Positions 9,701-54,363 of a stretch of DNA of 64,000 nt are shown piece after piece. Numbering within the stretch: the first letter of the stretch is position 1; each line of letters begins with the position of its first letter. This stretch comes from Lytechinus pictus (taxonomy: Eukaryota). The position numbers and the translations under genes were made by a program. The stretch lies in contig NC_087251.1 of the NCBI RefSeq assembly GCF_037042905.1, forward strand, positions 17,362,001-17,426,000. Reading direction: 5' to 3'. Below the pieces are notes generated by a model. The model saw only the letters and a list, made by a program, of their open reading frames with translations. It ran no database searches and was not told where the DNA came from.

Positions 9701-12700
9701 ACACATGCAAACTACTCTTATCCACAGTCACTTTCACAGTATTCGAATGGCATTGAATATTGAACACACACAGTGCTCATTTAGTTTCTGCCTTGGTTTT
9801 CATGTAGTCAAACTAGTCATTTTGGGGGCATTTTGGTCAGTGCCTTAAAAAGGCCCATTTAAAGAAAAAAAAATTGACATAAAATATAATATAAAAACTA
9901 TAATAATGAAAAAAGGCAACAATAAAAAGGAAATTCAAATCTAGAATCTACATAGCTGGTTCATGGATGGATCGATAGATAGACAGACAGACAGACAGAT
10001 AGATAGAGTGCAGGGTATTTATATTCATGTTCTTATTATATGTCTGGATATTATGTTCTCATCCGTGTGAGTGCAGATTCTCAGTTTACACAGCAATTTC
10101 GTGTTTAAAGAGGGTAGAGGATATGAGGAAGCTTTGGAAGCAGCTACAGGACTAGTTACCATAGAGATGAAACCTAAACGATATGGTATAGGATGTCGCT
10201 CTCCTTTCAATATGGTAATTATATCCCAAATTTGAATTTGATAGATCTATAGCAAGTTAGTGGACATTTTTCATTGGAAGAGGCACACTTAATTTATTGC
10301 TATATTTAGGGTGGGGGTGTGAATTTCATTGGTAAATCTTCTTCATGAATTGGTTCACAAGTGCTTTTGCTGAGAATGTACCAGTTTCCTGAGAAGAAAA
10401 ATAATTGAAATGGGGGAGGGGTAAGTTTCTAATTATTTATTTATGTCGTGTTTTGTTTTCTTTATCATTGGAATCATAAGGAAAAATATGAAACAACAAT
10501 AAATAAAGTCGATTTGGTGGATATTGAATGTTTTTATTGTTTCGCCAGCATAGCAGAACGAGACTAAGCGCCGCTTTTCCAACGGTGGCAGCGACGACGT
10601 CGTCGTCAACATTGAAATCTTAACCATGGTTAAGTTTTTAAATGTCAACATAACTTAGAAAGTATTGACCTAGTACATGAAACTTGGACATAAAATTTAC
10701 AAAGTATTACTGAATATCCTGCCTCAGTTTCAGGTCACATGACTAAGATCAAAGGTCATTTAGGGTCAATGAACTTAGACCATGTTAGGGGAATCAACAT
10801 CGAAATCTTAACCATCAAGTTTTTGAATGTCATCATAACTTTGAAATTATTTAAATCTATAGTTCATGAAACCTGGACATAAGTGTATAATCAAGTATCA
10901 GTGAACACCCTGCGTGCCAAATTATAGTCACATGACCAAGGTCAAAGGTCATTGTCAATGAACTTTGACTACGTTGGGGTATTTATTGAATTGCCATCAT
11001 AACTTTTATGGATCTTGATCATGAAACATGGACGTATAAATACAAGTATCACTGATCGTCTTGCACGAGTCTTAGGTCACATGATCAAGGTCAATGATCA
11101 TAATAGGGTCAACACATTTTATTATCATATGATTTTTTTTTGTGTGTAAATTATTATTCAATACTTGTTTTTAAAGTCAGCACTGCCGCTATATTAAATC
11201 GCGCGATGCAGGCGAGACTGCCAGAAAAAAATAAATGCAAAAAACTTGTTTGCAATTTTGAATTGATGAATCATTGATTGATTGATTGATATCCAGCACA
11301 GCAATCAAGGCTTTCTGTTGCAAAAAGCATAGCAATAATCACTTGCAAATTCATAATCCACTGCAATATTTAATTGATTTGGTCTATTGAAATTTTACTT
11401 TTTTAGTTTTCGGTTAATTGCAATTTCAATCATTCATCCTTTCATAATGTTTTCTGTTTGTATCTATAGGTATCTGAGCTTGAGATAGCGTGTCCTCCTC
11501 ATCGACACATCAGAGTTCACAAACCTGAGGAATGTGAAGAATACGGTTCATATGTCATAAACAAGTTAGCACATTACTTTTACTCATTCGACATTGTCGT
11601 TGAAGATCAAATTTTGAATAATTCACAATGTATTTTTTTTGCTAAATTGAATAAAGTAGTCAAATAACTAAATTGAAGAAAATAGGCAAATAAAAAGACC
11701 TTGTACACTTTGATGTATTTCCATGGAGCATCCATTTCTTTTAACCAACTTAAAGTTAAGGAGGACTTTATTTTTGATAAATCAATGAAACCAGGCTGTA
11801 ATTATGAATATGATATTTTGAGTATTAAAGGTTGACCTTTGTGTTATTCAGTAATCTGTATTATTTTCTTATTTCGTTATTAGGAAATCCTTTGCTCAAG
11901 TGAATGATGAACAAGCTGCATCTGAGATGGTAATAGTATTTTTATAGTAATATAATAGCAAAAAAATAAAACAAGAAATCCATTAAAAAGAATGATATCA
12001 GTTAGCCACTTATTTAATACATATGATAGCAAGCTTAAGTCCAAAGTAGATCTGAATTAGTTCTGATAAAAGTAAAATGTTTAAAAAGTGCATTTTTGTT
12101 AGTCTCCTATATATGTTATATAATCTAACAGTAATATTATTTTCTTTTCATAGAGTATGATGAGATAGCACCTAAACCTAAATAATTCTTTGATAAAAGC
12201 CCTAAATTAATCAAGGTAGAGAACTTGTTGAGAAGAAATTATTGTAGAACGGCAGTTAATTATTTGTATTCGTCATCCCCTCCCCATTACCAAAGTTTAG
12301 ACTTAATCTTGAATTTTTTTTAAAGAAGATGCTAGTGGTTGTTGATTAGAAAATTTGGATTTGTTTTATTCCCCTCAGGTTGTTCAATATGACAAGCAAT
12401 TATATGGATGTCCGTTTATTCAGACTGCTAGGGATGTATTCAAACCAGAAATTGATTTGTAAGTTTAATGGTTGATTTTTCATCAATCTTTACTTTCGTT
12501 GGCCACCATGACACAAATATTTTTAACATTATTATATCCAAAGTGTAATTGCTTTGAATGTGATTATGCTTTGAACACAGCCGGCGATCCAGGATGGACA
12601 CCCCCCCCCCCCAAAAAAAAAAAATGAATAAATTGAAATAAGAATTAAAGCTTTGATAATTATTTTTCTTTTAATTCTAGTCAAAAAGCCAAAAATAAAA

Positions 12701-22711: not shown

Positions 22712-22873
22712 AGTAATATTTGGAAAAATGCTTACGAAAAGCCATGGTCAGTCATTTAAAGATTGGAAAAAAAATTATTTCACACACAATTCAGGGATTT
22801 TATTTAATGAAACGGGCTGTATTTTAAGGCCTTAGGCTTTACATGAAGCGTCTCGAGTTCAATATTACATGTA

Positions 22874-23775
22874 TGGTTGGAACTACCCCTTATCGACCAC
22901 CTAATCTTCTAAGCATCGTATCTGCAAAAATATTCATCAATTTTACCCAGTTTTCGTCTCATTTGTGCAGAAAATTGAGCAGATCAGATTCCCATGTTTC
23001 GCTCGGCGACTCCGATTCGATCCGCGTATATATCGACGAACAACGAATACGACAATTTTGTATTTGCTCATTTGCACCCGTCTTTTGAAACCGACCACCC
23101 GTGATACACTAAGTTTACGGCCGATTCTTGTCGCGGTGGCGAAATATTTTTATTCTTCCAAATCAGTTCTATGATGTCAACATGCTAAATGATCGTCTCA
23201 CTACTTCCACTGCGAGCTCCGGCACATGATTCGACGATTGACGACGGATATTTGTTCTAAAGCCGTTTCCTATCGGATTTCTTGGTTTTTTAGCGGGGTT
23301 TGGGTCTGGTCAATACATTAGAATATCTTAGAACGACAAGTAGTGAACCACAATAAAGGTTACACTATTCAATCAACAAACACTGAACAATTAAAACAAT
23401 CTTTTTTTGTGAGTACCCCTCTGGCTTGGAACCATCTCCCACCTGACACAGTGAACAGTACATCACTAGAGGTGTTCAAGTCAAAGATAAAAAAAAGAGC
23501 TACCTACGATACGACTAAATATCACCGTGCCCTCTCACCCGCTGCATTCATACCAATTGGTCCAGCAGTGTACACATCCAGATACAATTTTGATTAATTC
23601 TATTAAATTTTTACTTTTTGTTGCTTCTTTTTTTCTCGTACAATCGATTCTTACCGTTTCTATGGACACTGCGCCTACTCTCCCGCGCGTATCGTTTGTA
23701 ATACGCAATAATTTTTACGCGCGCAAGGTGGTCGGTTTCAAAAGAGGTGCAGGTCGATATGTGGTGGTCTCACTA
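22874..23775. mobile_element. TA-flanked MITE containing a LINE 3' fragment
   Basis: Near-identical to 47509-48142 except for the insertion at 23318-23586. Confidence 0.8.
23318..23586 (+). mobile_element. 5'-truncated CR1/Jockey-group LINE 3' end
   Basis: Encodes SFFVSTPLAWNHLPPDTVNSTSLEVFKSKI, a typical ORF2 C-terminus. ATACA is duplicated at the junctions. Confidence 0.7.
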
Positions 23776-24107
23776 TATTTCATCATCTTTAACTGAATTT
23801 TTCATGAATATTTGTTTATGTAATCAGATGTACATGTAAGGGTCACTGAGCAGATTAAAGGTACCACACCACATTAGTTTGCAAAAGCCATCCAAAGGGA
23901 TTTTAAAAAAAAGGCCCAAAATACATTTTCCATTTTTTGTTTTCTCAAAAATATTTTTTTCGTTATTCTTTGTTCTTTGATGGGATTTTACCTCATCCCC
24001 CCCCCCCTCCGCTTTCCATTAAAGCAACTTTATGTCCAGAAGGAATCCCCTTTATTATGGAGGGTTGGGATACTTCCCAATATGTGAAGATACAGTGCCA
24101 TTATTAA

Positions 24108-33133: not shown

Positions 33134-36100
33134 TCAGGTCTCTGTTTTATCTGTGGTCTCAATCCTGGCCTTCTTTATTCTGAGTGACCTCTGTAGTTCC
33201 TTAATCCTAACGTCAATATCATGGACTGCTGTGTCTTGTGCATGCTCTTTCCCAAGGCTATCTCCCCTCTCTGTCTTGGCCATTGAAGCCTGTAAAATAA
33301 TAACAATCAAATTAAGATACTTGATCAAGTGAAGACAAAAAGATATTTTTATAATAAAATCAAACAACTGGGGAAATACAGGAAGAAAGAGAGCAAGCTG
33401 TGCATATGTTCTTTCTAATGGTGACATTGAAGGTAGGACCCTAGAATGTTGATTTGTGTATCTGGTTGGCATTTCTGTGAAAACTCAAATCACACATTCG
33501 GGAAACATGTATCATACACACCATCAGACATTATGATAATCAGATATGGACAGAAAGTGGGATCTCAAGCACCAAACTCCTAAATCTAGTGTGAATTGAG
33601 AAACCTGAAAAGGCGACAATAGATGGAACTGCAACCATCTGCCACAAGATTTCTAAAGAAACATGGACGAGAGAAGCAGGATCACAAATATCATGGTGGT
33701 AATTCTCACAGCATTGAAATTATCTACTTAAGTCCACATTTATAGAAAGAGCATGTTGCCAACTCATTAAAAAAGTACAAATTATACAGTGAAAGTGTCC
33801 ACCAAATTTATTTTGCAATGACATGAAAAGAAACACATAATCAGGACTGCACATAATAATTATACAATGAATTTCAATGATCAATTTGATACATATTTTG
33901 TCATGAATGTAAAATAAGATGAAACCTTGAATTCTACTAATAGAAGTGTGAACTTGAATTCATTGAGTTTCTCAAAAAGCAAATATCAATATTAAACATA
34001 CCAACAAACACAAGCTCATTCAAAGACTTACTGATAAGTTTGCATATTCAGGAGAGATACTCTCTAGGTGTAATAATCTTTTCTCCAGATGCTTTAGTCT
34101 TTGAAAAATGTCCCCTGAAGAATTGGAACCTATATATATAAGAATATTAAAGAATAAAAGTCCTACAGTTTAACGTATCTAATATAATATAATATCATTT
34201 CCAATGAAATTATTGCTATGATGATCAGTAGAAGCTGTAGCAGTAGTAGCACTTAGCAACTGTAGCACCGACAACAGCAGTAGTAGTAGAGGTAGTAGTA
34301 GTAGTAGTAGAAGTAGTAACCTCGTCATTGTGATCACCATTATCATCATTATTATATTATGATTATTATCATCGACATTACTACTTTCAGGATAATTATA
34401 ATAGTCATATCTTATATTTCCCTCCTGGCATAATTGATGAAGATTTTATAAACAATAATTTGTAAACAATAACTTTAGTGATGCATTTGATTTTTCCATA
34501 AAAATATACATACAGCTGTGTAAAATGAAAATAATTGCTAGAACAATCTACAAAAAATTGTGTATAAGTGTTGATCCAAAGTTGGTCAATCTTAGACTTT
34601 TTATTGCAAGTAATTCATTTTGTTACACACTGATGTTAAAATAGCACATACCAGTTTTCACTTTGAGAAAGGACTCCATGTTGTGTAGCCTTTCCTCTAC
34701 TCCTGTCACTGGGCCAGCTGGGCCATTAGTACTAGAGGTCTCTCTTGTAATCCGGTCTCTTTTAACTGCAGGTCTTACATGTGGCTTCATGATCAGAGCA
34801 GGTCTTGTTTGAGGTCCATATTTATTTACCACCTGAGATACTGCAAAGAAAATGACAGAGCTACATTATCAATCATGTACTGTAATTCCCATAGGGGTTC
34901 AAAACATACATACACATACTGGTATTCTGTATGTTAAAAAAGAAGAACACAATACAAAGATTCATCTAAACTACATCTAAAAATCAAGATCAATCAAAAC
35001 TTGAGCTACATAAGGGGAATCCTTGAAATGGAAAGCTTTCTTTAAAAAGGGGGTGGGGGCAAAGATAAGCAGATACATGGAGGTGAAAGTTTGAACCATA
35101 TTAGATAAACAATATAATTTTATTTTTTGTGAAAAGTTAATATCACTGCCATTGGAAGGTGGACACCACCTTGTTTTTTTGTGTGGACAATATACAAGCA
35201 TACTGTGAAATGGGTATCCAACTTTGCAAAAGCAGGAAAATGTGTATGTACTATACAGTCTGGATAGGTGTAAATAATATTTCACCCTATCATAATAAGA
35301 AAAGGGCGGGGAAAACATTATAAAATACTTGTTTAGGGTACTATGAAATCGAAAGATGATTCTTTGTTTAGGGTCCATTCTGAAATTCCATGTACAAGCA
35401 TGTTGTACACAGTGTAATGACAATGGCCCAACAGTCTATCTTTGCAAATTCAAATTAATTCTGTGAAAAAAATAGCTCATAACAGATTTTTTTGTGAATC
35501 AAGCTAGTGAATTAATGAAAGTGTACCTTTAATATGGCTCTTTCCACCAGTCTGTGACGTGAACACAGCATCAGTCCGAGCACAAGAGGTTCCTGTTGTT
35601 TGGGGCATCTTCGGACAAAACTCCCTGCGATTTGTATCATCCTTCTCCGTCTGCTTGCGATCTATGAATGCTTGGATCCTCCGATATATCTATGAGAAAC
35701 CCGAAGAGTTTATTATCGCCAATAATATCAGCAAGAACAAAGACTTGAACAATCCAGAGCATAATACATCCCAAGGTCAAGCCAGTCCTTCAAAGTTGTC
35801 TTGGAATCATTTTTGTTAGATTTGGGCACTATCAACAATTGATTTTTATCTTACTGCAAATAGTAATTTCCTAAAATACAATACAATATCCATTCTGTTT
35901 CTGTAAAGTAAATTTTTCTTCTAATGACACAGTTTTTTTTCTCTTGTATACTTCAGTTTTCAAACATACAATTTCAAATGGGAATGTTTTTTTCTTTGTC
36001 TTATGTATTTGAAGAGTCACTTAAATGGCCTAATGCCACAATTGATTCCAATGATGAGTTTGAGAGATCAGCCCCCCCCCCCCCCCCCAAAAAAAAAAAA

Positions 36101-37680: not shown

Positions 37681-38589
37681 TGAGGTGTTGGCTGCTGGCA
37701 GTTGTTCATCCAACTAGGAAGTTAGTCCAACAATGGTTTACTGATCGAGCTCTACTCTGTGAAGAAGAGACCAGGCCTAGTAAGGCACCACCACAACTCC
37801 TGATATACCTGCAGTGTTAAGGAGCATATATTATATATGAAGTCTTAATACCTTTAATTATCAATTTCATAACAAGTCATGAATTTCAGACATTAGTATT
37901 CAGTCTACTTTCCCCAACACCATACACATTGAGTATACAGCTCTGAGTTTTTACAATGTGGCATTGGCATGAGTTTGATCTACATGCATGCATGTATTCA
38001 CTTGGTCTGGCAGGTTTAATAGTGACTGGGCATAAAAGCAAATTTGATCGGTTCACTGTTAATCATGATGTCATCAAGATTGACAGTGAACAGATAAACT
38101 TGCGAATGATTGATGCCCGAGTGGAGTTACATGTAGATGCGTCCGTACAGGTTGTCATGGTTTTGTGTCCGGACAATCGATTTTCAACAGGCATTTGGAA
38201 AAGTTAACAAGCAAAGTTTTATCAATATTTAGTACAGAGAGCTAGGAAATGTTATTAAGAACAAAATTGAAGAAAATTACAGCAATTTAATTCATTTTTT
38301 TTTTTAATCTAAAAACAAAAAGAAGGCTCCAAAATTGTAGTGTCCGGACACCCGACCCCCCATCCTACTATTAGTATGGCAGTGGATCGTATTATCGAAA
38401 ACTTAATTTTCACGAAATCATAATACTCTCATAAATTTTATCAAACTTTCACCATACATACACGGCGTCAACACTAAATCTTAACCGAAGGTTAAGTTTT
38501 TGAAATGACAGCATAACTTAGATAGTATATGGACCTACACGTAGTTCATGAAACTTGGCCATAACCCTTACAAAAATGTCCTGTGGTAA

Positions 38590-39450
38590 TACCATATAAT
38601 TACCATAGGACTTTACCACACAATTACCACATATATTGTTGTGTGGTAATGCTATGTCTTAATGTCCTGTGGTATTGTGTGGTAATGTGTGGTAATGTCG
38701 TGTGGTATTGTCCTGTGGTAAATTGGAACATTTACCACACAACATTACCACAGGAATACCACATGAATGGATTAATATACGGTAACATTTACCACACAAG
38801 GGATTAATTTATGGTAACAATTTTTACCACATACCGGTTACCACACACCAGTTACCACATGCATTACCACACACCATTTACCACATAGATTACCACACAC
38901 CATTTACCACATAGATTACCACACACCATTTACCACACGACAGTTACCACACCATTTACCACACACCAGTTACCACATGCATTACCACACACCATTTACC
39001 ACACAAATTACCTCACATTTTACCGCACACCAGTTACCACACGCGTTACCACACATCATTTACCACACGAATTACCTCACATTTTACCACACGCCTTACC
39101 ACACAAATTACGTCACATTTTACCACACACCGGTTACCACATGCATTACTACACACGATTTACCACACGCGTTACCACATACACTACCACACACCAGTTA
39201 CGTGGTAATGCATGTGGTAACTGGTGTGTGGTAAAATATGAGGTAATTCGTGTGGTAAATGGTGTGTAGTAAACACTCACCAGTTACCACATGCATTACA
39301 ATTACCACACATATTGTACATACTACACATAATACCATGCATCAGAGTCATTACCCAAAATGTTTGTGGTAACTAGTGTGATGGTATGTGTGATAACTGA
39401 TGCATGATAATGTATGTAGCAACTGGTGTGTTGTAATGTGTGTGGTAACT
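38590..39450. repeat. Left subterminal array of TTACCACA/TGTGGTAA motifs of the 13-kb element
   Basis: Dozens of direct and inverted TTACCAC(A) units. Confidence 0.9.
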
Positions 39451-40192
39451 GGTTAGATACATCACAGATCATGGGTATGAATTTGGTAGCAGTAGAATGT
39501 GTTCATGACCCTATGGACTTTTATAAGATTAAGAAAATACAACACCTTCAATGAACAAATAACAAATGATTTTACAAGTGATATAGAAAGTACTGGTATT
39601 TAGCTCATAGATTCATCAATTTACAATACTGGTTTACATTTGCTATTGACAAAAAATGTATAACAGCTGCTTTACTGTACAAACAGTGTAACATAACAGT
39701 AACTATCAAAGAAATTACAGTGCATATAAATACTTTAAAAAAATACATTTCTTCTAAATACTTAAAAAAGTTACCTCAAAGGCTATCAGGCTTTTCAGCA
39801 AACCAAATTAACGACCATTGTAGTTTTTTTTTGCAGGTTACACATACAGAATGGACTGATTACTCTTTGTTTTATGCTTAAAGACAAAAATGATTAAACT
39901 CTTAATCGTTTTTAAGAAAATGAACAAAACATAAGGATGTGTCTACAATAGGTAATATCATATAAGTAGCTGCGTCAAAGTGCACTGTACTCAAAATTGC
40001 GTATAACAAAATGCATAATTATCCCAAGTTTACTTCAAGGCCGAAGGGCAAGTAGAAATAGACGAGAGATGATAATATGTATTTCGAGTCCACTCAGTTT
40101 AGAATAGTGTTCAAAGGAACGAATAATTTGATCAATTTACGCACCAAAAATGAAAACTAGGACAATACCCTGGCATGTAATATCTGAATTAA

Positions 40193-40914
40193 AGGAAAAT
40201 AACACCAAAAACATAATACCACATGATCCCATTGATAAATACAGGACAATCAAAATGAATCCACTCATACCCTAATCCAATTACAGAGTACCACCTTTTC
40301 AAAGTTGGCCTCTTACAGTGTGGTTTGAAGTTTCTGGATGGAGGTCGCCATTTTCGCGGGGTTAGTTAGAAAATTATTACATCAGCGACGAACTACATCT
40401 CTAAACGTTTAGGCATTATATATTCTATTTTATCAATAACAAATCAAATGTACAGATAAAACTCATAAAAATATTAGTTAAAATTTGTTTAATATATGGT
40501 AGGTTCAAAATACAATTTGATGAGTTTTAATGATAAGGTTTACACCCCAATTTCCGCTGCCAATTTGTAAATCGTAGATTAGGGTGTAATTTTTATCATT
40601 AAAACTCATCAAGTCGTAATTCGAACCTATCATATAATATTAAACAAATTTTAATTAATATTTTATGAGTTTTATCTCTACATTTGATTTATTATCAATG
40701 AAATAGAATATATAATGCTCAAACGTTTAGAGATGTAGTTTGTCGCTGACGGAATAATCTCCATCCATAGACTTCGAACCAGAAGATGCCAACTTTGAAA
40801 AGGTGGTACTCCATACTGGGAAATCGGATTAGGGGTATATGAGTGGATTCATTTTCATTGTCCTGTATTTATCAATGGTATCATGTGGTATTATATTTTG
40901 GGTTTTATTTTCCT
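40193..40914. mobile_element. Fold-back (almost fully palindromic) Kolobok-like MITE inside the 13-kb element
   Basis: TTAA-AGGAAAATAA...TTATTTTCCT-TTAA; the arms pair over roughly 300 bp around a ~35-bp loop near 40550-40580. Confidence 0.8.
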
Positions 40915-40994
40915 TTAAGATATTGTACTGGTTTATATCATGGCATTACAAAGTTCATCTGTAGTGCACACTGTGTCAAGTGCACAAACCTATT

Positions 40995-41284
40995 CAGGGT
41001 TCTCACAGAAATTTGAAGACAGAATTCCATGACCTCTCCATGACTAAATTGCTGCTTTCCATGACTTAATTCCTTTCTGGCACAGTTTACAAAATCAGAC
41101 ATGTTATGATCATGAACACCAATTATAATAGTAGAGTGCAATCACAGAGTATGAGAGTTGCGAGACATAAAAAACTAGAAAGCTGTCATAGCCAAGAGGT
41201 AAATGCAATTCCGTGACTTTTCACATATCCCTGACTTTCCATGACCAATTTTTTCCAGGATTTTCCATGACTGTGGGAACCATG
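40995..41284. mobile_element. hAT-like MITE
   Basis: CAGGGTTCTCACAG / CTGTGGGAACCATG ends; repeated TTTCCATGAC motifs. Confidence 0.55.
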
Positions 41285-42499
41285 TAATAATACTGCATTG
41301 ACAGCTATCATTTTAAAAGTTGATTTCAATTTCCTTCAAACATTTTATTCATCTCTTTTTGGTTGGTCCTTGAATATATTGGCAGGTCGTCTATAAAAGC
41401 ATGTACATCGTTAAAAAAAGGCTTTTGGCAGGAACTTTTGGCAAGTAGTCTACAGTATCAATGCATGTAAATTTGGGTGAAAGAATCATACATGTACATT
41501 AATTCTTAAGAAAAGTTTGTGGTTGTATTACACTATCATTTAGAGGTATTAAAAAGACAGCAGTTGCAGCAAACAATTATTTCATGAGAAATTGTCAAAA
41601 TATTGTACATAATCTCTAGATCTAGCTGGTACATTAATGTAAACTTGTATCTTTGTAAAATCACTAATTATGAAGTTAAAATCAATTATTCTGATGATCA
41701 CTAACACAGAAAAGCATATGTGGGACAGGACAGTGTATTACATTGTATGATTGATTTGAAAAATGCCTGACATTTGATAGAATTACATGCTTATTTTGCT
41801 CATTTCTCAGCAATTACACATTTTCTTCCCGAGCTATAATTCTGGCACATATCTTTTATATTTTGCTGGTAATTCTATTGGATTCTGTTCGAACTCATTT
41901 TAAGATTGTTACTTCAACTGGTAATTTATCTTTAAAGGTGTACTTGTATATGATACGGGCTCAACATAATCTAAAATAAAGTAATTTTTACCATGCAAAA
42001 TAGTGAAAATTTTATCAAAATCAGATAAAATTAATAAAATATTTACAAAAATATTGGTCATCAACACATGCAAGTAGATACATGTAAGTTTATGATATCA
42101 TGCCCACATTTTTATTGTTTTCATGTTACCAGATAAAATAATAATTTACTTCATGTGTGTAATAAGTATGTCTTCCAATCCCATGTAGCAAAAGAACTTC
42201 CAGCAATAATCAATACAGGTAAGTCACATCAATACAGTTTACAATCCGATTTGTTTCATTCTTTGTAAACAAAATTAAATGCACAATTTTATATACAAAA
42301 AAATAAGTTGGGGATACGTGTACACGTACAATGTACGTCAGTATGACATCATCAGCTTGCTACTTGCATATGCTTAGAGCTCTTTCACCAAAATAATGCA
42401 GAGGTTAGAATGTCATACATTACTTTATTATCCCTTGTCTAATTTGGATGAATTTTTCACTTTTGTTAAAAAGTAATAAAAGGCAATATCCATGGTTAC

Positions 42500-43090
42500 C
42501 CTTATGCTTGACCTCAATGCGTGTTCGCTTTTACACAACACATTATTTTGCGAGATACAAAGCGCTTTGAGATGCCATCCATGAGATTTAAAAAAAATCA
42601 AATTACCAGGCAGTGACAGTATTGTTGGAAGTACAGAGCAAAGATCAGGAATATGGTAGGTCTTCTCAAATTGTATTTGGACTGATCCACTTGAGGTTGT
42701 TGACAACTGGAGGAGAGGAAGGAGCTAATTCCATGGCCTTGGAGCAGTAGTGGAGAAAGTTGCATCACCAGTAGCTAATTTGTAGGTGCGTAATGATCAC
42801 AAAAATAAAAAGGCAAGTGCGCCTAGAATGAAAATGACGCACAAGGGATTCCTTAGAATACATGTAATCTGTCATTGACTTTGAAAATCAGGAGACGGAC
42901 ACTGATGTTCATGTATATCCTTTCCTTGACTTGCAGCCAGCAAAGTTGGCGTATGGCAAATGGCACAATAGATGCAGCATTCTGTACTATCTGCAGTCAG
43001 TCCAGATCGCCCTAATTCAAGCACGAAGAGCATTACAATAGTCCAGTGTAGATTGCGCTAAACCATGGACTGCTTTGTGGCAAGTAGAAA
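42500..43090 (-). mobile_element. Degenerate L2-clade LINE 3' fragment
   Basis: Broken translation AVHGLAQSTLDYCNAL...LQIVQNAA...LCWLQVKERI...GDATFSTTAPRPWN resembles the L2 ORF2 C-terminus. Confidence 0.65.
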
Positions 43091-45264
43091 TGTAAAAGGC
43101 ACTGTTTGATGTTATACTGGTAGGGAGCAGGTTCCAATAGCACTATGAAAGGAGTTACGAAACCAGATGAATGGGTGCAGATTCAGGACACCTTCCATTT
43201 CAACTTAAGGCATCTGCAAAAATAACAGAAGTAGATCAACATAAAGCCTTTCCTGCATTAACTATTTAATATTCATTAAAAACTACATGGTTTCAATATC
43301 AATTTCCAAACTTTTTTAAAAATGATTAAAAAACAATGTGGGGTTTGTTACATATTTATACTTCAAATATTAACATGTAAAGTCAAGTCGGGGAGGGGGG
43401 CTTGATGCCGTGAAGATCTGCTGCACCTCCAAACCATCTCTGTATAGGGAAGGACATTTTAAAGAAATTTTTTTAATATTTATATTAATCAAACATGATT
43501 TTAATTCATGCTTTTTTTAAATGTGTTTTAAATGGTTATGGGATAATTCCATCAGTTTGAATAAGAAATTACAAGTTGCCAATTTCACATAACGAAGATC
43601 AATTCTGATGTGATAATAAATGCATGTTAGGTGTTGATGTTTCACTTATGCCTATCTATTACGTTTGAATTGACAACAGCATGAACCTTGTAAGAGCATT
43701 AATTATTAGACAAGCTTTGTATCAGAGTGGTTACAAAATCAAAATTATTCAACTGCATCTCATGTTCATGCACATGTAAATAATCAAAATAACACAATAA
43801 TTATTAAAAAAATACCTTCCAAAAAGGATAAATTTGTACACACCATTATATCTGAATGAATATTGTTCTTTTAGTCCACCTATAATGATACAGCTGATGA
43901 GAGTTTGAATGATGGTATCAAGATGGTGCTTCTACCAGGGCTGCAAAAGAGAGAAAAAAATAAAATGTTAACCTCAATCATGCCAAGAAATTGCAAAATC
44001 TACAAGTACATGTCCCAGCCATGGCACATGCACAGTAGGTAAGACGTAAAATATATGGTGAAGTAAGCCTAAGGGTCTTACAAGTAATTCTTTGCATGTG
44101 CCACTCATTAATGTACATGCAATTTCAATGTTCAATTTTTACATGGAACTGTGACAGCAGTGTCAGTGTGAGGAACATATTAATGCAAAGAGTATTCAGC
44201 AACTGTCTGCAGCTTACTTTATGTCACTTCATTTTTTTCTTTTTACCAATAATAATATGAATCTTTTAAAGTGCATAGCTTTCGGAATGGGCAGGAACCC
44301 TTTCAAATATGGCTGGCAAAATGAGGCATTTAGAAAACTCTGTAGGATTTTTCAGACCTGTAAGTTATGGTCTAACTTTCAGATTTGAGAATTCTAGATC
44401 TAATCATCATCTTGATTTTTAACTTCCACAAATTAAAGACAATCTGTATAAAAGCTTTAAATATACAATAGTAATAGGCCCTAAATGTGGTTAAGTTTAG
44501 GCCTTACATTATTTTTATTTTATTTTTACTATCGGTAGGCCTATGAATATATTATTATTCTTATACTTTATCTTTAGCAGTTTTAGAACACATTAAATTG
44601 AATAGATATTTGACAAAAAAATCTAACAAATTTTGAGGTAAAATTAGTTTTCTGGAATCGCCAGATCAACCGTTGTGAAACTCTATTAGCGCCAAATTAC
44701 ACTCTAAACTTGTCATTAGAACGTCCAAACCGATACACGTCAGCCTGGAATCTAGTACTAGCACAATCAGCTATGCATTTGCACCAATTCCCTCTGTATT
44801 TTCTTGCATGTGGACGTCTCTCGACTTAAAGGTCATGTCATTGTGTTATATAGCTTGGGAATTGCAAGCAAGTGATCCTTTGAAAGGTTTACCTGCTTAA
44901 AATTAACATTTATTAAGCCTTAATTTTGTATATTTAGATTACAAAGGCTTGCAAATTGGAAAAATTAAATGTTTGCCCAAAAATTATTGTGGGAAAGGTG
45001 GATTTTTTAAGGGAAATCCATCTTTGTGTACCAAGTTCTACAGGCAACAGACTTGTCTAGGCTCCGTGAATGAAAATACCCCTAGTACAATGTAAAAATG
45101 ATAAAAATATCATCACAGAGTCCCCTAAGTACAGTTAGGACCATTGACAGATAAGGTGCCCCAAGATTGCGCTCATCCGAATCTGCGCGATTCTGATAAT
45201 GGAAGATACGCAACGACTCCAAACAAAAAATAATCTTTACACCTGAAAGAGCCTACATGTACTG

Positions 45265-45463
45265 TACTTACATTGTCTTACCTACATGTACTGCCCGATG
45301 CCTCCTGACATGTAGAGCAACAACAAAGGACCTCCACTCCTGGCGGCCAGTGGTTCTGGACCGTCTTCTGGAAACTCCCCCGGGCTAGGTCATATTCACC
45401 GACTTCATCTCCTCCTCAAATGTGATGCCAGGACAGGTAGTTTTGGGTCTCCCTCTCTTTCTC
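45265..45463 (-). mobile_element. Degenerate RTE-clade LINE 3' end
   Basis: RKRGRPKTT...FEEEMKSVNMT*...QKTVQN...EWRSFVVALH followed by a GTAAG-type tail. Confidence 0.7.
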
Positions 45464-45491
45464 CTGAAATGTCATAAACAGATCTATTCAT

Positions 45492-46598
45492 AAACAAGAT
45501 GAATGCCTCTGGCCGTCTCACCTGCATCACGCGATTCAATATAGCAGCAGTGCTGATTTTGAAAACTACTATAACTCGCACAAGATGTTCAGTGATACTT
45601 GGTTACTCTTATTTCTACGTTTTATGAACTAGACCCATACACTTATAGAGATATGATGGTAATTCAACAAATACCCCCAACGTGGCCAAAGTTCATTGAC
45701 CTTACATGACCTTTGACCTTGATCATGTGACCTGAAACTCGTACAGGATGTTCAGTGATACTTGATTACTCTTATGTCCAAGTTTCAAGAGAAAGATCCA
45801 TCAACTTTCCAAGTTATGATGGTAATTCAACAGATACCCCCATTAAGCCAAAGTTCATTGACCTTTGACCTTGGTCATGTGACCTAAAATGCGCAAAGGA
45901 TGTTCAGTGATACTTGATTACTCTTATGTCCAATTTTTATGAACTAGACCAACACACTTTCAAAGTTATGGCGGTAATTCAACAAATACCCCAATTTGAC
46001 CAAAGTTCATTGACCCTAAATGACCTTTGACCTTGATCATGTGACCTGAAACTTGCACAGGATGTTTAGTAATACTTGATTACTATTATGTCCAAGTTTC
46101 ATGAATCAGATCCATAAACTTTTAAAGTTATGATGGTAAATCTACAGATACCCCCAATTCGGCCAAAGTTCATTGACCCTAAATGACCATTGACCTTGGT
46201 CATGTGACGTGAAACTCATGCAGGATGTTCAGTGATACTTGATTAACCTTATGTATAAGTTTCATGAACTAGGTCCATATATTTTCTAAGTTATGATGAC
46301 ATTTCAAAAACTTAACCTTAGGTTAAGATTTTGATGTTGATTCCCCCAACATGGTCTAAGTTCATTGACCCTAAATGACCATTGACCTTGGTCATGTGAC
46401 GTGAAACTCATGCAGGATGTTCAGTAATACTTGATTAACCTTATGGCCAAGTTTCATGAACTAGGTCCATATACATATTAAGTTATGCTGTCATTTCAAA
46501 AACTTAACCTCAGGTTAAGATTTGGTGTTGACGCCGCCGCCGCCGCCGTCGGAAAAGCGGCGCCTATAGTCTCACTCTGCTATGCAGGTGAGACAAAA
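45492..46598 (+). mobile_element. Helentron-associated (HINE/DINE-1/pearl-like) element with internal tandem repeats
   Basis: Subterminal inverted repeat GTCTCACCTGCAT (45515) / ATGCAGGTGAGAC (46582), about six 150-190-bp tandem units, a (GCC)n tract, a terminal hairpin and A-run flanks. Family assignment is from structure only. Confidence 0.7.
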
Positions 46599-46644
46599 AT
46601 CTGACTTAAAATGGTGGGAATTAAAATAATGAATTTAGGGCATT

Positions 46645-47133
46645 GGCAAGAGTTCCATATGCACCCCCACTAAAATTGAAAATAAAAACATGAAGGTTCA
46701 GAATAATATATCGAGCACAATATAGAACATATATGATGGGGGAGTGGATAGTACTAGGAGTGGAAATACATACTAAAATATGGCTTTATTCCGTCAAATT
46801 TCGAGCATGTATGGATGTATCTAGTGTGTGTAATTGTCTATAGACATCGGTTTATTTACTCAAGGGTCTGTGAGTCAAGTCTAGACGAACTATTGGCTGA
46901 TAATCGTTAAAATACCCCTTCCGGCATCAGCACTTCTCGCTAGCATAGCAGGACAGGTCTTGACTGCAAATAAAACGAGGTGATCTCAAGTCCCAACTAA
47001 GGTGCCAACACAAGGGTAAAAAAAATATAGAAAAATCTGAAGTGAACGAACTGGAATGGAATTAAGTCTCAACAATCTTATTTTTTGTCATGTTGGTGGG
47101 GGGTACATTGGAATTGCATATGGAACTCTTTCC
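46645..47133. mobile_element. MITE with GG termini and 8-bp TSD (superfamily unclear)
   Basis: GGCAAGAGTTCCATATGCA / TGCATATGGAACTCTTTCC; TSD AGGGCATT. Confidence 0.75.
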
Positions 47134-47261
47134 AGGGCATTTCATGTGACGTCCTCAAAATGCAGCCTCTGTGACTGTGCTTTCTTATCGAAATCTTCGC
47201 ATCATGTGTAATAGGTCTGTGTAAAGTGAATAGGTGCGCAGACATCGGCCACTATTAGTAT

Positions 47262-48385
47262 TACCCAGTTGTTGTGTGTACGGACAGGTTGTGCATGTCC
47301 GGACGATCAATTTTAGAAAGTCATTTGGAAAAAATTACAAGCAAAGTTCCATCAATTTTTAGTACAAAATATGAGGAAATATTACAAAGAACAAAATAGA
47401 AGATGATAACAAGTATTGAATTCATATTTTTAGTGTAATCCAAAGATAAAAAGAAGGCTTCAAAAAGATAAACTATCCGGACACCCGACCCCCATCCTAG
47501 TACCAGTATGGTTGGAACTACATGTACCCCTTATCGACCACCTAATCTTCTAAGCATCATATCTGCGAAAATATTCATTGATTTTACCCAGTTTTCGTCT
47601 CATTTGTGCAGAAAATTGAGCAGATCAGATTCCCATGTTTCGCTCGGCGACTCCGATTCAACCCGTGTATATATCGATGACCAACAAATACGACGATTTT
47701 ACATTTGCTCATTTGCACCCGTCTTTTGAAACCGACCACCCGCCGTACACCAAGTTTACGGCCGATTCTAGTCACGGTGGCGAAATATTTTTATTCTTCC
47801 AAATCAATTCTACGATGTCAACAGGCTTAATAATCGTCTCACTACTTCCACTGCGAGCTCCGGCACATGATTCGACGATTGACGACGGATATTTGTTCTA
47901 AAGCCATTTCCTATCGGATTTCTTGGTTTTTCAGCGGGGTTTGGGTCTGGTCAATACAATTTTGATTAATTCTACTAAAATTTTACTCTTTGTTCCATTT
48001 TTTTGTCGTAAAATTGATTCTTACCGTTTCTATGGACACTGCGCCTACTCTCCCGCGCGTATCGTTTGTAATACGCAATAATTTTAACGCGCGCAAGGTG
48101 GTCGGTTTCAAAAGAGGTGGTCGTAATGTGGTAGTCTCACCATATGGTATACCCAGTTGTTGTGGGTCTGGACAGGTTGTGTGTCCGGACGATCAATTTT
48201 AGAAAGTCATTTGGAAAAAATTACAAGCGAAGTTTCATCAATTTTTGGTACAAAATGTTAGGAAATATTATAAAGAACAAACAAGAAAATGATTACAACT
48301 GTTGAATTTATATTTTGTGTGTAATCCAAAGAAAAAAAGAAGGCTTCAAAAATATAAAGTGTCCGGACACCCGACCCCCATCCTA
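47262..48385 (+). repeat. Two direct ~237-bp copies (47262-47499, 48150-48385) of a TGTCCGGACA-motif repeat; others at 38135-38368 and inverted at ~52787
   Basis: TACCCAGTTGTTGTG...GTCCGGACACCCGACCCCCATCCTA repeated. Confidence 0.8.
47509..48142. mobile_element. TA-flanked MITE, uninterrupted copy of 22874-23775
   Basis: Colinear with high identity; TGGT...ACCA ends. Confidence 0.8.
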
Positions 48386-48806
48386 CCACTAACTTAATAA
48401 TTTTGTTCAATCAAAATGTAAGTAAATGACCATGACTGGCCGAGATATTCTCCCAAGAAAATCAATTATTTCTCTTAATTTTTTATGAGACTTTTTGCAC
48501 ACTTACTCATAAGAATACAAGGAACATCATCAATTGAAAGATTTTGGGTACTGTAAAATAACAGGAAATTCACGTTAAATCTAAACTCAAATCGTTTAGG
48601 TGTGCTGTGTGCAGACTTGAGACCACCAGCCAGTGGTCCACATCACAGCAGCGAGCAGGCGCTCGGGGCCGGGCGAGCGCCCGGTTAGACAGGATGGGAT
48701 TGCCAGTGTCATGTCATTTTCATTGACGAAATCTTTAGCTAGTTGCAAGCCGGGGCATTTAACAAACTACGAAAAGAAAATCATAGAAAATGGTTATCTA
48801 ACTTAC

Positions 48807-49020
48807 TGTTTAGCCTACTGCAAATGTCTTCGAAGTCGTTGTCCATATCTATCCCGTATTCTTTAAGTAGTTGAATAATTATTATTAACGGCCTTCTTCG
48901 TTACACTTCTCGATCGAGCTCAATTAACTGCAACGCATGCAACGCAAACGGAATTCTTTTCAAACGTTGGCGGTAAGTGCGCATGCGCAAGCCTGTCGCC
49001 GCCCACCCCCCCCCCCGGCG
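48807..49020 (-). promoter_or_regulatory. Promoter and candidate first exon inside the 13-kb element
   Basis: Perfect TGCGCATGCGCA (NRF1 consensus) at 48978-48989 next to a GC box-like GCCGCCCACCCC. CpG-rich, with a consensus donor A|GTAAGT at 48807/48806 on the - strand. Confidence 0.55.
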
Positions 49021-49084
49021 AATCAATTTTTAATTTTGATAGGGGGTGAGCTGAGGGGGTCTAAGTTATGGGTTTGATTACTTT

Positions 49085-51600
49085 TTTGTGTGGTATTTCT
49101 GATTTTCAACAGAAGGGCAATAACACACAAATACCACATATTTGAATTGACATTACTACACAATGGGCTAATGTGGTTACATGCTAATTCCATGTGGTAA
49201 TTTTGATTCACCACAGCAGTATAACAATACCACACAAATACCACATATTTGAATTGACATTACCACACAATGGCATCATGTCAGTGGCGTAACAGGCGGG
49301 GGGGCTGGGGGGCAAGGTGCCCCCCTGGCGGATTTCACCGGGAAAATAAAAAAACGGGAAAAAGAAAAAAAGGGAGGGAGAAAGAAAGGGAAAGGGGGGG
49401 AAAGGGGAAAAGGAAAAGTGAAAAGAAAACGATTTTCTTTTAGTGGAAAAGGAAAAAAAGCGGGAAAAGGCACGAAAGAAGAACATTTGACAAAGAACAA
49501 ATCATTCCGAATTAGGCTTATGTGATGCAATAGCATGATGGGAAATAAATTAAAAATGACAATGGCAAACAATAGAAAGAAACTGAGGTAGAATGGAATT
49601 AGTCAAAAGCTAGATTAGAAAACAAAGAAAAGGGACAATAATAAAATAATAATAACACGACCGGGCTGCCGAGGATTGACAATAAAGAGCGGGAACAATT
49701 TAAAGATGGGCTGCATACAACATTGTGCTATAAGCTTGTTAAATTTTAAGCAAATCATAATTAAGCTACCGGGCTTTGCCCCGGACCCCATCTATATAAC
49801 CATATAAATTGGCGCTATATAATGCCCGCCGTTCAATCACTGGCGTACAGGCGCGGGGGAGGGGGGGGGGGGGTCTTGGTTCCACACCCAAGAGGAAATA
49901 AAAGAAATTATAGGAGAGTATAATGAAATGAATGGAAACAATGAAATGTGTTATTTGCTGAATATAATGGAAAAAATCCATCAAATAATTAGAATTTAAT
50001 TTCAATAGGCAATTTTTTTCCAGCTCGCTTTGCACGCTGGCGACTTTTAACAAAATTTAATTAAATTCAATTCACTTTATTGACATCCATTAAAAAGGTA
50101 CAATATACAATATCATATGAACAATAAAACAATACATAAACAAATCAATATAATGAAAAATAAAAAGAGTAGAACCAACATGCAGTGGATGTAGAATGTA
50201 AATTTTCCCTCATTGCTATCTTTTGCCCCCTCAAATATATTTGGTTCATTACGCAACTGGGTTGAATAATTGTGTTGTGTGAAAACTATATTCTGTATAT
50301 ACCCGCGATTTGATTAAAATAGGTTTAAATGGCTCTGATATCAAGAAGTTCCAGGGGCCCCGTCCCGGATCCCAACCGCACAGCACTGCCGTATATGAGT
50401 ATGGAAGGGTTGGGCCATTGGCCCCCAAAAGTTCTACAAACGAGAACAAAAAAAGGAGAAATGAAAGGCAAAGGCAAAGTGTAGGATATTTTATTTACTG
50501 AATATGATTTTCAAAATATCTCAAAGTTAGATTCTCATGAAAATGTGATTTTTTTTTCTCGCTCGCTTCGCTCGCTCAGGACTTGTATAAAGCAGCTTTT
50601 TGGCAAGTGTGTCATACTGCGCCCCTCGTTATTTTTACTCTTCACGCTTCTGCCGCAAAGATTCCTGTTCATAACATGGCGTACAGACCATAAAAAAGGG
50701 AATGGAAAGAGAGAAGAGTGAAATATATCTTGTCAAAATCTATCACAAAATTGGATTTTTGTATTAAAAATGTCAAAATTTTTGCTCGCTCGCTTCGCTC
50801 GCTCGCATAAAAAAAGAAAATTTCTGCCCGATACGCAATATCTGACCCCCTCAAAATAGTCGCTTCATTCATGGACCTATCACAATAGGTCCATGCTTCA
50901 TTACACCATTAAGCCTGTTCATACCATGATATGACCGGGAATTAAATGTTTGGCTCTTGCCCCCCCTGGCCACCGACCCCTGTTACGCCACTGCATCATG
51001 TGGTATTGCATTCATGAGGTAAGTTTGATTTACCGCAGAGCATAACACCACAAAAATACCACATATTTGAATTTACATTACCACACAATGGCATCGTGAG
51101 GTAAATGCATTCATGTGGTAATTTTGATTTACCACAACAGTATAACAATACCACACAAATACCACATATTTGAATTTACATTACCACACAATGGCATCGT
51201 GAGGTAAATGCATTCATGAGGTAATTTTGATTTACCACAGAAGTATTCAATACCACACAAATACCACATATTTGAATTTACATTACCACACAATGGCATC
51301 ATGAGGTAACATGCATTCCTGTGGTAATTTTGATTTACCACAGAAATATAACAATACCACACAAATACCACATATTTGAATTTACATTACCACACAATGG
51401 CATCATGAGGTAACATGCATTCATGTGGTAATTTTGATTTACCACAGAAGTACCACATAGACAACAAATTACCACAGCTACCAGCTGACGTTACCACACA
51501 AGGATATGGAAAATTACCACAGATGTTCATGTGGTAACCATGTGGTAACCTACATTCATGTGGTAATTCGTGTGGTAAAGCCGGGTACCACACAGATATA
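49085..51600. repeat. Right subterminal array (~103-bp units built from ACCACA motifs), interrupted by a hAT-like insertion
   Basis: Unit ccacacaaataccacatatttgaatttacattaccacacaatggcatc... recurs at ~49125, 49230, 51047, 51151, 51253 and 51356. Confidence 0.88.
49282..50993. mobile_element. hAT-like non-autonomous element nested in the right subterminal array
   Basis: TIR CAGTGGCGTAACAGG / CCTGTTACGCCACTG; perfect 8-bp TSD CATCATGT. Confidence 0.85.
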
Positions 51601-51622
51601 CCACACGACATTTTCGTAAGGG

Positions 51623-52485
51623 AAGGTTAATCAAGTATTACTGAACATCCTGCCTGAGTTTCAGGTCACATGACCAAGTTCAAAGGTCACTTAAGGTCAA
51701 TGAACTTAGACCATGTTGTGGAAATCAACATCAAAATCTTTGAAATGTCATCATAACTTAAATAATACATGGGCCTAGTTCATGAAACTTGGACATAAGG
51801 TTAATCAAGCTATTACTGAACATCCTGCCTGAGTTTCAAGTCACATGACCCAGGTCAAAGGTCATTTAAGGTCAATAAACTTTGGCCAAGTTGGGGGTAT
51901 TTGTTGAATTACCATCATAACTCTGTAAGTGTATTGGTCTAGTTCATAAAACTTGGACATATAAGAGTAATCAAGTATCACTGAACATCCTGTGCGATTT
52001 CCAGCTAGGTCACATGACCAAGGTCAATGGACTTTGGCCATGTTGGGGGTATTATGTTGAATAACCATCTAACTCTAAAAGTGTATGGATCTCATTCATA
52101 AAACTTGGACAGTATAAGAGTAATCAAGTATCACTGAACATCTCATGCGAGTTTTAGGTCACATGATTAATGTCAAAGGTCATTTAAGGTCATTGAATTA
52201 GGCCATTTTGGAGGTAATTATTAGATTGCTGTCATAACTTTCAAAGTTTATAGATATAGTTTATAAAATGTGGATATAGGGGTAATCAAGTATTACTGAC
52301 AAGTCTGAGGTCGCATGATCAAGGTCAAATGTCATTTATTGTCAATGAACGTAGTATTGTATAATGTATCATTATATGAATGGTGTTTTTGGTGAATAAT
52401 TATTTTATAGTAGTTTTCAAAGTCAGTACAGCTGCAATAATGAATCACGCGATGCAGGTGAGACTGCCAGAGGCGCTCCACTTGT
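51623..52485 (-). mobile_element. Third copy of the Helentron-like element, right part; the left part is 38463-38564
   Basis: The sequence resumes exactly where 38564 stops and ends with gatgcaggtgagactgccagaggcgctccacttgtt. Confidence 0.75.
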
Positions 52486-54363
52486 TCTTTTTAACGATAT
52501 CAGCTTCCAATCGCACCACTCTTTCCATGTGAAATATTTTGGTCACTTGAAAATGGTAATGGTATTGTAGGCCTATTACAGAACGTGTGTTTTCTGTAGA
52601 AAAAGTTGAGAAAACAGCAAATTCACTGATGAGCTTACATCATTTTATTATTTTGAGAATATGAAGACTTTGAAAATGTGTTTTTGACAAGTTTTCATCA
52701 TCTTTCTATTCAAGTTCGCTTTGGAAGGATCTTACAAAATGATCATATGAATTTCCTGACACATGCATTTGGTAATACAATCACTACAGGATGGGGGGTC
52801 GGATGTCTGGACACTTTAAAATTTTGAAGCCTTTTTTCTGTCATAATCTTTGCCTGGCTTGAATAACATCTTAAATTATGAATTCAATTAGGCACAGGAA
52901 ATACTATTTTTGCATGATAAATCGAGTGCACTGGTTAATGATCTTTAGATGTTTGCCACAAATCTGAGAAAGATAATTTGTTCAAATATCAAAATTGGTA
53001 TTGTTTTTATCGTTTGAAAACAAATGCAAATGCGTAGCTCTAAGTCTAAGACTAAGAGCATGAAGAGGAAGAGTAAGACTAAGTCAAGACTCAGAGTAAG
53101 ACTAAGTTCCCCCCCTCCCCCCATCACTGATCACACCACCAAATAAGTCAACTAACCTCTAGGCTCTACGACTACGGCTCAAGTCTAACGTTAGTCTTAG
53201 AAAAAAGGTCAAGGTCGGATGCAGGATCTTCTGACTGTTCCTCTAAATCTGCTAGCAGATAGAACTGACTGTGTCTTAGCTTCTTGACTTAGCCTAGTTA
53301 TAAACACTCCACTCCAGTTACACAATGAACCTAGCTATCACATGCACAAACAACGTGCTATATCCGGGGAATTAACTCTTGTGCAATGCGAATTACTGTA
53401 TCACAGAATCGTGATTGCCCCATTGGATATGTGTGCATAAGAATTGAACGTTGACGTGGGCTGCATGCCTCCAGCTAGCTCCAAAGAAGATCCGTAGAGC
53501 AGCTTGAGCACTAACATAGACAAACTTGCGCTCTTATATCTTTGCTGTACACATACAGCGCTTGACATATCTCCCGAGCTAGCCCTAGTCTGCTATGCAG
53601 ACTCTGAATGGCTCGTGAAGTGGGATCTGCAGCTGGTTTGCGAAGCAAACCAGCCTGAAAGGGCGAGCGAAGCGAGCCATTTCAGAGTCTGCTTCTTCTT
53701 TGGAAATCTTGTTCCCACGGTCAAAATAAGTCCCACCCACCCAAAATTTCAGAGAGCTTTCATTGGATAACTTCATCTGTCTGTAAACCAAATTTTATGA
53801 CCACTGAGGAGTATAGATAATCCCCTACTTCAACCACAGAGCCATGAGCAGGGTTATTATGTAATACCCTCGCTCAGGCCATCAGACAGTGTTTACATAT
53901 GACATTCCACTGAGCAGCTGCATGTATGGCCAAAACCTTGCTCCATGGCCCAAAATAGTGGATGGTTTTATCATAGCTCTATATATATATTCAATTCAAT
54001 TCAATCTTTATTTCGCAAATAGGATAAAAATACAAGGAAACATCAAATAATGTGATTAGATAATAAAAATAAATTGCGTGGCTTCCCATGAAGGTAATAA
54101 GAAACATGTGAGGCTCGCCAAAACATAGTAAAAACAAAACAACATTAATACAAAACAGAATATCATATCATTATAGTTAATAGTGTATATAAAAAGGAGA
54201 AAAAAGCACGAGTTGAGGGGGGTAGATACGTTACAAGTATGCATTGATATCATGTGTGAGAATTAATAATAATTTACTAGAAAATTTGAATACTGTTTTC
54301 TAAAAAAATATATAAATTGTGAATTAGTTATTATTTGGGGAATCTCATTCCATTGTTTGGGAC

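Follow-up and report, generated by a model that had tools for sequence, protein, structure and literature searches.

A 13-kb insertion in Lytechinus pictus as a probable copy of an apparently young family of large, non-autonomous DNA transposons with CCC...GGG ends

Transposons of the CMC group duplicate 2-4 bp of target DNA according to the available text of PMC4482050, and for animal CACTA elements the available text of PMC6004678 gives a duplication of 2 bp. The ends of Chapaev and animal CACTA elements are described as invariably CAC...GTG in the accessible parts of PMC4079192 and PMC6004678, and the accessible part of PMC12730594 assigns CA..TG termini to CMCT lineages "in most cases". 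Here we compare with these systems an element at positions 38565-51622 of a 64,000-nt window of Lytechinus pictus DNA (GCF_037042905.1, NC_087251.1:17,362,001-17,426,000, forward strand), all element positions below being positions of that window. An initial annotation, made from the letters of the window alone, had described it as a CACTA-like element with CCC...GGG ends, lacking a transposase and carrying a large cargo. Our analysis indicates that it is very probably a copy from a young family of large DNA transposons of the cut-and-paste kind, which are unable to move themselves.

Ends, insertion site and genomic copies of family A

The terminal inverted repeats of the element are 24 bp long and agree at 22 of 24 positions, with mismatches at positions 8 and 17. 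The left one (38565-38588, plus strand) is CCCTTACAAAAATGTCCTGTGGTA, and the right one (51599-51622, minus strand) reads CCCTTACGAAAATGTCGTGTGGTA on the minus strand. With as many as 3 mismatches allowed, the 24-mer matched nowhere else in the window, and it had no match in 100 shuffles. The letters at the borders are ...ccataa|CCC on the left and GGG|aaggtt on the right. When the 150-bp left and right flanks were aligned to three unbroken units, near 46441/2, 51797/8 and 10692/3, of the host repeat that the element interrupts, they overlapped by exactly 2 bp on each unit, and we therefore consider the insertion to be base-precise with a 2-bp AA duplication, whose left copy is at 38563-38564 and whose right copy is at 51623-51624. 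The 24-bp ends, the AA duplication and the host repeat cut and resumed to the exact base, all proposed initially, were thus confirmed.

The ends recur throughout the assembly, which comprises 812 Mb in 368 contigs. Each 300-bp end of the element matched at least 40 places at 94-100% identity, and the end pattern, allowing up to 2 mismatches, gave 95 matches, compared to 0 for a control pattern. They consisted of 45 left-type ends, 44 right-type ends and 6 others, of which two belong to a 675-bp miniature copy, one at each end, and four are singletons with 2 mismatches. Left- and right-type ends on the same contig and strand formed 42 pairs, whose lengths have a median of 11.2 kb and sum to 580 kb; 33 of these were 9-13.2 kb long, one was 6.5 kb and eight were 15.6-39.2 kb. 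Both flanks were readable in 15 pairs, and matching 2-bp flanks were present in 14 of them (aa, tg, ta, ac, cc, ca, ga, ga, gt, ga, ta, aa, at and tc). Matching duplications are kept even by the 27-kb and 39-kb pairs (aa and at, respectively). The initial annotation had proposed one mobile unit and had named a lack of other paired copies as evidence to the contrary; the 42 pairs, their matched 2-bp flanks and their shared interior bear the proposal out.

Subterminal arrays of the motif TTACCACA, also part of the first description, were confirmed at both ends. The window contains 64 matches to this motif, compared to 3.5 expected and a largest shuffle value of 9, and their placement is uneven, with 40 in 38582-39448, 18 in 51078-51578, 2 at 49193 and 49260, and 4 outside the element. 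In the left array (38582-39448) the 40 motifs occur in both orientations, and a 12/26-bp tandem array spans 38838-39192. The right array (50993-51578) is made of 103-bp units repeated 4.5 times (50993-51452), with its 18 motifs extending out to 51578. A displaced unit of the 103-bp repeat, at 49089-49280 on the plus strand and 79.6-87.6% identical to 51015-51501, is parted from the main right array by an inserted repeat of about 1.7 kb (49281-50990), which shows high-copy depth over 49376-50797. The miniature copy (C9:2256623-2257297) carries the family ends, is flanked by a tt duplication, and contains little other than 42 TGTGGT/ACCACA cores. Since this copy amounts to ends plus motif cores, it points to the ends and motif arrays as the cis requirements, and suggests that these suffice in cis. 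Rfam and tRNA scans gave nothing above threshold, and the sub-threshold matches were hairpins in the motif arrays only. At 38681-38765 and 39146-39272 the inverted arrays resemble microRNA hairpin models below threshold (the highest score is 45.8 bits, where the gathering score is 110), and these are structural look-alikes only.

Family A appears to be young. The close identity of its copies, which reaches 99.8% in aligned blocks, and the preservation of their ends and duplications suggest recent, and possibly continuing, DNA transposition of an unusually long substrate.

The larger part of the interrupted host repeat lies at 51623-52486 (minus strand) and the other part at about 38463-38564, as determined by flank alignment and by self-matches within the window. 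Together with related sequences at 45494-46598 and 10534-11112, it represents a discrete mobile repeat of about 1.1 kb with internal tandem units of 152-192 bp and short, inverted, hairpin-forming termini (GTCTCACCTGCAT...ATGCAGGTGAGAC). One copy sits in an A-run without a clear duplication. The repeat is very abundant in DNA runs and shows a strong strand bias in RNA, and it may resemble the satellite-carrying non-autonomous Helentron-type elements of bivalves. A check for the empty site in contigs from sequencing runs gave no joint at 38564/51623. One contig under another species label showed a long skip from 38492 to 51844, with 25 bases on its shorter side; this was rejected as an empty site, being located within repeat units. 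Locally, the 13-kb insertion lies close to the 5′ region of a gene, putatively MBIP according to the initial annotation, whose candidate first coding exon is at 33134-33472 on the minus strand, in a frame containing MAKTERGDSLGKEH....

Composition of the shared body

To compare interiors, ten other family A copies were fetched, and all ten were collinear with the window copy. Two are of the same length class and align in at most 4 blocks each, C13:5332943-5344871 at 98.6-99.8% identity and C15:22172326-22184253 at 97.3-98.3%, while the shorter copies show 91-96% identity and internal deletions. The one large copy that was examined (23.7 kb, C19:13764611-13788316) has the same body with nested insertions, including a long interspersed nuclear element (LINE); this LINE has an intact 1047-aa frame on the minus strand (3461-6601 of the second of three fetched pieces) with endonuclease and reverse transcriptase (RVT_1, E=9e-40). 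Two segments of the window copy, about 1.1 kb at approximately 45494-46598 and an insertion or deletion of about 66 bp, were found in no other fetched copy. The first is an insertion (minus strand) of a mobile repeat that bears tandem repeats and comes from the family to which the interrupted host repeat also belongs, matching 51623-52486 and 10534-11112 and having internal units of 152-192 bp. Its site is bridged unbroken in 8 of the 10 fetched copies, and five copies show the empty site; an A-run at the borders leaves their position uncertain by a few bases.

Since the sister copies are collinear at 97-99.8% identity, the interior is the family body, about 11.9 kb in its long form, and was not acquired by the window copy. 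The "large cargo" of the initial annotation is accordingly not borne out as worded, the interior of about 10 kb being the conserved body of the whole family. The body of about 11.9 kb would be a non-coding mosaic in which sequence specific to the family is combined with older repeats that a master copy already contained and that were amplified with it. The window copy would have landed inside a tandem-repeat-bearing mobile repeat and later taken a 1.1-kb insertion of the same repeat family.

The element encodes no recognisable transposase, as first described. Its longest stop-to-stop frame is 138 aa and lies within a motif array, and a Pfam scan of the 109 frames of at least 45 aa gave nothing below E=0.002, all scores being far under the cut-offs. 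Tblastn with an EnSpm-type transposase of the same genome (E up to 1) found nothing in the window and one match of E=0.93 in the family reference copy. When the body was compared with C2:41506348-41511347, a relative whose identity to it has fallen to 80-84%, insertions and deletions were frequent and third-position bias was absent. The short frames, the lack of Pfam matches and the lack of third-position bias together indicate that the element is non-autonomous and non-coding.

Several repeats contribute to the mosaic. An internal palindrome of about 730 bp (40189-40918), a self inverted repeat of 77.5% identity, is part of the family body and also has minus-strand matches in other copies. 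The body segment at 40844-42265 is a high-copy repeat in other runs, with word depths of 7,313-35,120 in run X11 compared to 3-24 in neighbouring unique bins. A composite of nested older repeats at 47262-48385 was recognised by self-matches in the window and by high word depth in runs X1 and X11. It includes direct repeats at 47262-47499 and 48150-48385 that are 90% identical and belong to the same family as 38159-38379, and the repeat between them also occurs at 22863-23778. A run labelled as another species has contigs over 40.8-42.3, 47.0-48.4 and 49.4-50.8 kb, where its word depth is very high, and next to none over the family-specific segments at 39.4-40.8, 42.3-45.1 and 48.4-48.9 kb; in a run under a third species label the family-specific segments are present at 95-99% identity. 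Of the at least eight nested repeats proposed initially, five or six could be documented. Routine masking would split copies of about 12 kb with such repeat-mosaic interiors, and both family A (about 580 kb in 42 pairs) and a second family, B (about 85 copies), would be missed as units.

Sister family B, the conserved block and the mobilising enzyme

Family B was reached through a 14-base relaxed end pattern with 1 mismatch allowed, which gave mostly noise (265 matches compared to 200 for its control). The ends of B and A agree at 19 of 24 positions, and the B ends gave 175 matches in the genome, of which 75 are exact right-type ends, compared to 1 for the control. The family has about 85 copies, mostly of 11.4-12.4 kb. 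The one B copy that was read is 11,685 bp long, is flanked by a ta duplication and contains no frame longer than 127 aa. The inner-end motif of B (TACTACAG/TACTGCAG) is repeated subterminally, as in A. A small unit with inverted GGTCTCAAAAGATG... ends is nested in the body of the B copy at C3:2959519-2965500 (4167-4343 of the fetched piece), and a related end lies by an EnSpm-type gene on C8 (160-193 of the piece C8:25611700-25615400).

The body of B is unrelated to that of A except for one conserved block, and tblastn of all 475 family A frames of at least 18 aa matched, at E below 1e-4, the block region only. In the window the block is at 48784-48990 on the minus strand, with 95 of 126 positions identical between the families, and is a candidate inward-facing promoter or leader. 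In a narrower delimitation (48784-48897) it carries on the minus strand, in this order, a GCGCATGCGC palindrome, an ATG and CA|GTAAGT. The 20-mer core of the block occurs 191 times in the genome, compared to 0 for the control, and exact block 22-mers are found 76 times as B-type and 68 times as A-type, about 27 of the A-type matches being outside paired A copies. Four of these exact A-type 22-mers lie in tandem at C11:33111195-33112314, with spacings of 291, 291 and 516 bp, outside any paired element. With the insertion at 49281-50990 set aside, the block adjoins the right subterminal array on the inside and faces inward, a position one would anticipate for the promoter and leader of the transposon itself. 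RNA reads are strand-biased over about 39.9-48.9 kb (first mate on the plus strand), with a depth below 1 to the right of 48.9 kb. Both the bias and the drop fit a promoter in the block, with the reservations that reads at 95% identity or more may stem from any copy or from nested repeats and that the strandedness of the library is assumed. We regard a promoter here as a tentative assignment, more doubtful than not, and the block could be an independent small repeat. Of the "promoter, exons" named in the initial annotation, a promoter-like block is therefore present, while evidence of coding exons was not obtained, there being no third-position pattern and no splice among the 15 of 297 joints listed.

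As to the superfamily, a duplication of 2-4 bp, which is a CMC feature, is present not only in the 14 matched pairs but also in the miniature copy (tt) and the B copy (ta), and the subterminal arrays in both orientations are present in great excess (40 left and 18 right, compared to 3.5 expected in the whole window). Such arrays are a hallmark of CACTA elements, although not an exclusive one. The genome contains 12 Transposase_21 loci, 8 of which have open frames of 657-914 aa, and these 8 long intact frames suggest that CMC-type transposons are currently active. One locus, C8:25611700-25615400, has an 836-aa open EnSpm/TNP2-like exon (469-2979 of the piece, minus strand) preceded by a good splice-acceptor sequence. 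This 836-aa frame (27-29.5 bits) lies within a 27.6-kb pair of B-type ends (C8:25607893-25635502), and its 3.7-kb surroundings are not B-like.

Several findings weigh against assigning the element to this group. The CAC...GTG termini that are a CMC feature are absent, since all family A ends begin with CCC (2 of 95 with CCA) and the B ends also begin with CCC; for this reason we refrain from classing the element as CACTA. The arrays do not single out CACTA, given that hAT, P and Mutator elements have subterminal repeats too. One of the 15 readable pairs, C4:32070127-32080790, is without a matching duplication (ac/cg). The search for an autonomous EnSpm partner with these ends, proposed initially, found none: a 19-base relaxed end pattern excluding A and B gave 6 matches, all of them A or B variants, and none of the 144 exact 22-mer block matches (76 B-type and 68 A-type) is near any of the 12 EnSpm-type loci. 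The EnSpm-type frame between B-type ends may itself be a nested foreign element. Two large copies were also considered as carriers of a partner gene; the 23.7-kb A copy was rejected, having a LINE and not a transposase, and a 15.8-kb B copy proved to be an inverted self-duplication with no long frame. A 34-bp island common to the EnSpm-bearing stretch and B was rejected as a sign of collinearity, being the end of the small inverted-repeat unit nested in B.

The label "CACTA-like" consequently stands in part: the 2-bp duplication fits animal CACTA elements, and the CCC...GGG ends and the lack of a linked partner transposase do not. The element is at most a putative member, one that resembles that family and works like a non-autonomous CACTA-type element with non-canonical ends. 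We infer, at somewhat better than even confidence, that the mobilising enzyme is of the CACTA/CMC (EnSpm/Mirage-like) type. A transposase from elsewhere in the genome would recognise the 24-bp inverted ends and the dense TGTGGTA/TACCACA arrays, the motifs presumably serving as protein-binding sites, and the whole unit would be excised and reinserted via a staggered 2-bp cut without sequence preference. If CCC ends were tied to a CMC enzyme, the rule of an invariable CAC, which is used to classify non-autonomous elements, would have to be relaxed.

A more speculative reading, which we consider unlikely, is that A and B, with older relatives, form an undescribed cut-and-paste lineage. This would be characterised by CCC...GGG ends, sequence-independent 2-bp duplications, a non-coding body of about 12 kb and an inward-facing conserved block by one array. 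It would be mobilised by a transposase that shares neither the ends nor the block and that could be of EnSpm type, with a relaxed recognition of ends, or of a kind so far unrecognised. The elements would be transcribed units, the block being kept for their RNA and not for a protein. A 12-base end string was absent from the searchable literature, with Repbase and Dfam being outside that search.

Still less probable is a Pack-type capture, in which a small element with these ends acquired about 10 kb of DNA from the host, with a host promoter and exons among it, and then amplified what it had taken up. The promoter-like sequence in the body, with its ATG and splice-donor-like GTAAGT, would suit such an origin, as would the unrelated bodies of near-equal size that A and B hold between related ends, and multicopy Pack-TIRs are known in animals according to the available text of PMC8277862. 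However, no parental host copy of the interior was identified among the best 40 candidates per genome search, which were dominated by the family's own copies. Nor does any frame have a Pfam match or the body a coding pattern of substitution; much of the body consists of other interspersed repeats, and the promoter-like block is itself repeated 191 times. Animal Pack-TIRs capture small pieces, their median size being 224 bp in the available text of PMC8277862, and a capture, if there was any, took place in the ancestor of the family and not in the window copy.

We give very little weight to the possibility that the element of about 12 kb is autonomous, with a transposase in many small minus-strand exons transcribed from the block at about 48.9 kb. 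The RNA strand bias and its drop at 48.9 kb would agree with this, as would the conservation of the block between A and B up to CA|GTAAGT, and the uneven RNA depth (0.18 at 44162-44635 compared to 16.3 at 44636-45109) could reflect introns. However, A and B have no protein-level similarity in tblastn of the 475 frames other than in the block. The frequent insertions and deletions, the lack of third-position bias, the lack of Pfam matches and the absence of a splice among the 15 joints listed of 297 all speak against a spliced gene, and any copy, or the nested repeats, may be the source of the RNA reads, which were placed at 95% identity or more.

Tc1/mariner elements duplicate TA and piggyBac elements duplicate TTAA, and piggyBac ends begin with CCC. 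Another group is the least probable source of all, since the 2-bp length shared with ISL2EU and Tc1/mariner comes here with varied letters (1 of 15 is at, where ISL2EU duplicates AT in an A|AT|T target in the available text of PMC4482050, and 2 of 15 are ta), which excludes both, and no flank shows TTAA, which excludes piggyBac in spite of the CCC ends. Taken as a non-autonomous cut-and-paste transposon, the element is of an ordinary kind, and three things about it are unusual: non-coding units of 12 kb occur in two families, the termini are CCC, and the partner is missing.

Comparison with known systems

Maize En/Spm has subterminal repeated motifs, as does the present element. ISL2EU of the PHIS superfamily is alike in the length of its 2-bp duplication, and differs in that the duplication is AT inside A|AT|T, whereas those found here are varied; autonomous ISL2EU copies carry transposase and YqaJ genes, neither of which the present element has (ISL2EU as described in the available text of PMC4482050). 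Large non-autonomous plant CACTA elements, Pack-type elements and animal Pack-TIRs (the last as described in the accessible part of PMC8277862) are alike in having a long interior unrelated to a transposase and amplified to many copies between functional ends. In comparison to these, the present interior is mostly made of other repeats and is about 10 kb long, against an animal median of 224 bp. The closest likeness is to animal CACTA/EnSpm (CMC) elements and their derivatives, such as ENS1_Cis and the CMC-NA miniature inverted-repeat transposable elements, as described in the available text of PMC6004678. In contrast to these, the present ends are CCC...GGG, the elements are non-coding units of about 12 kb and not miniature, and no transposase is linked to them; with these they share the varied 2-bp duplication, the short inverted ends, and non-autonomous derivatives that outnumber any partner.

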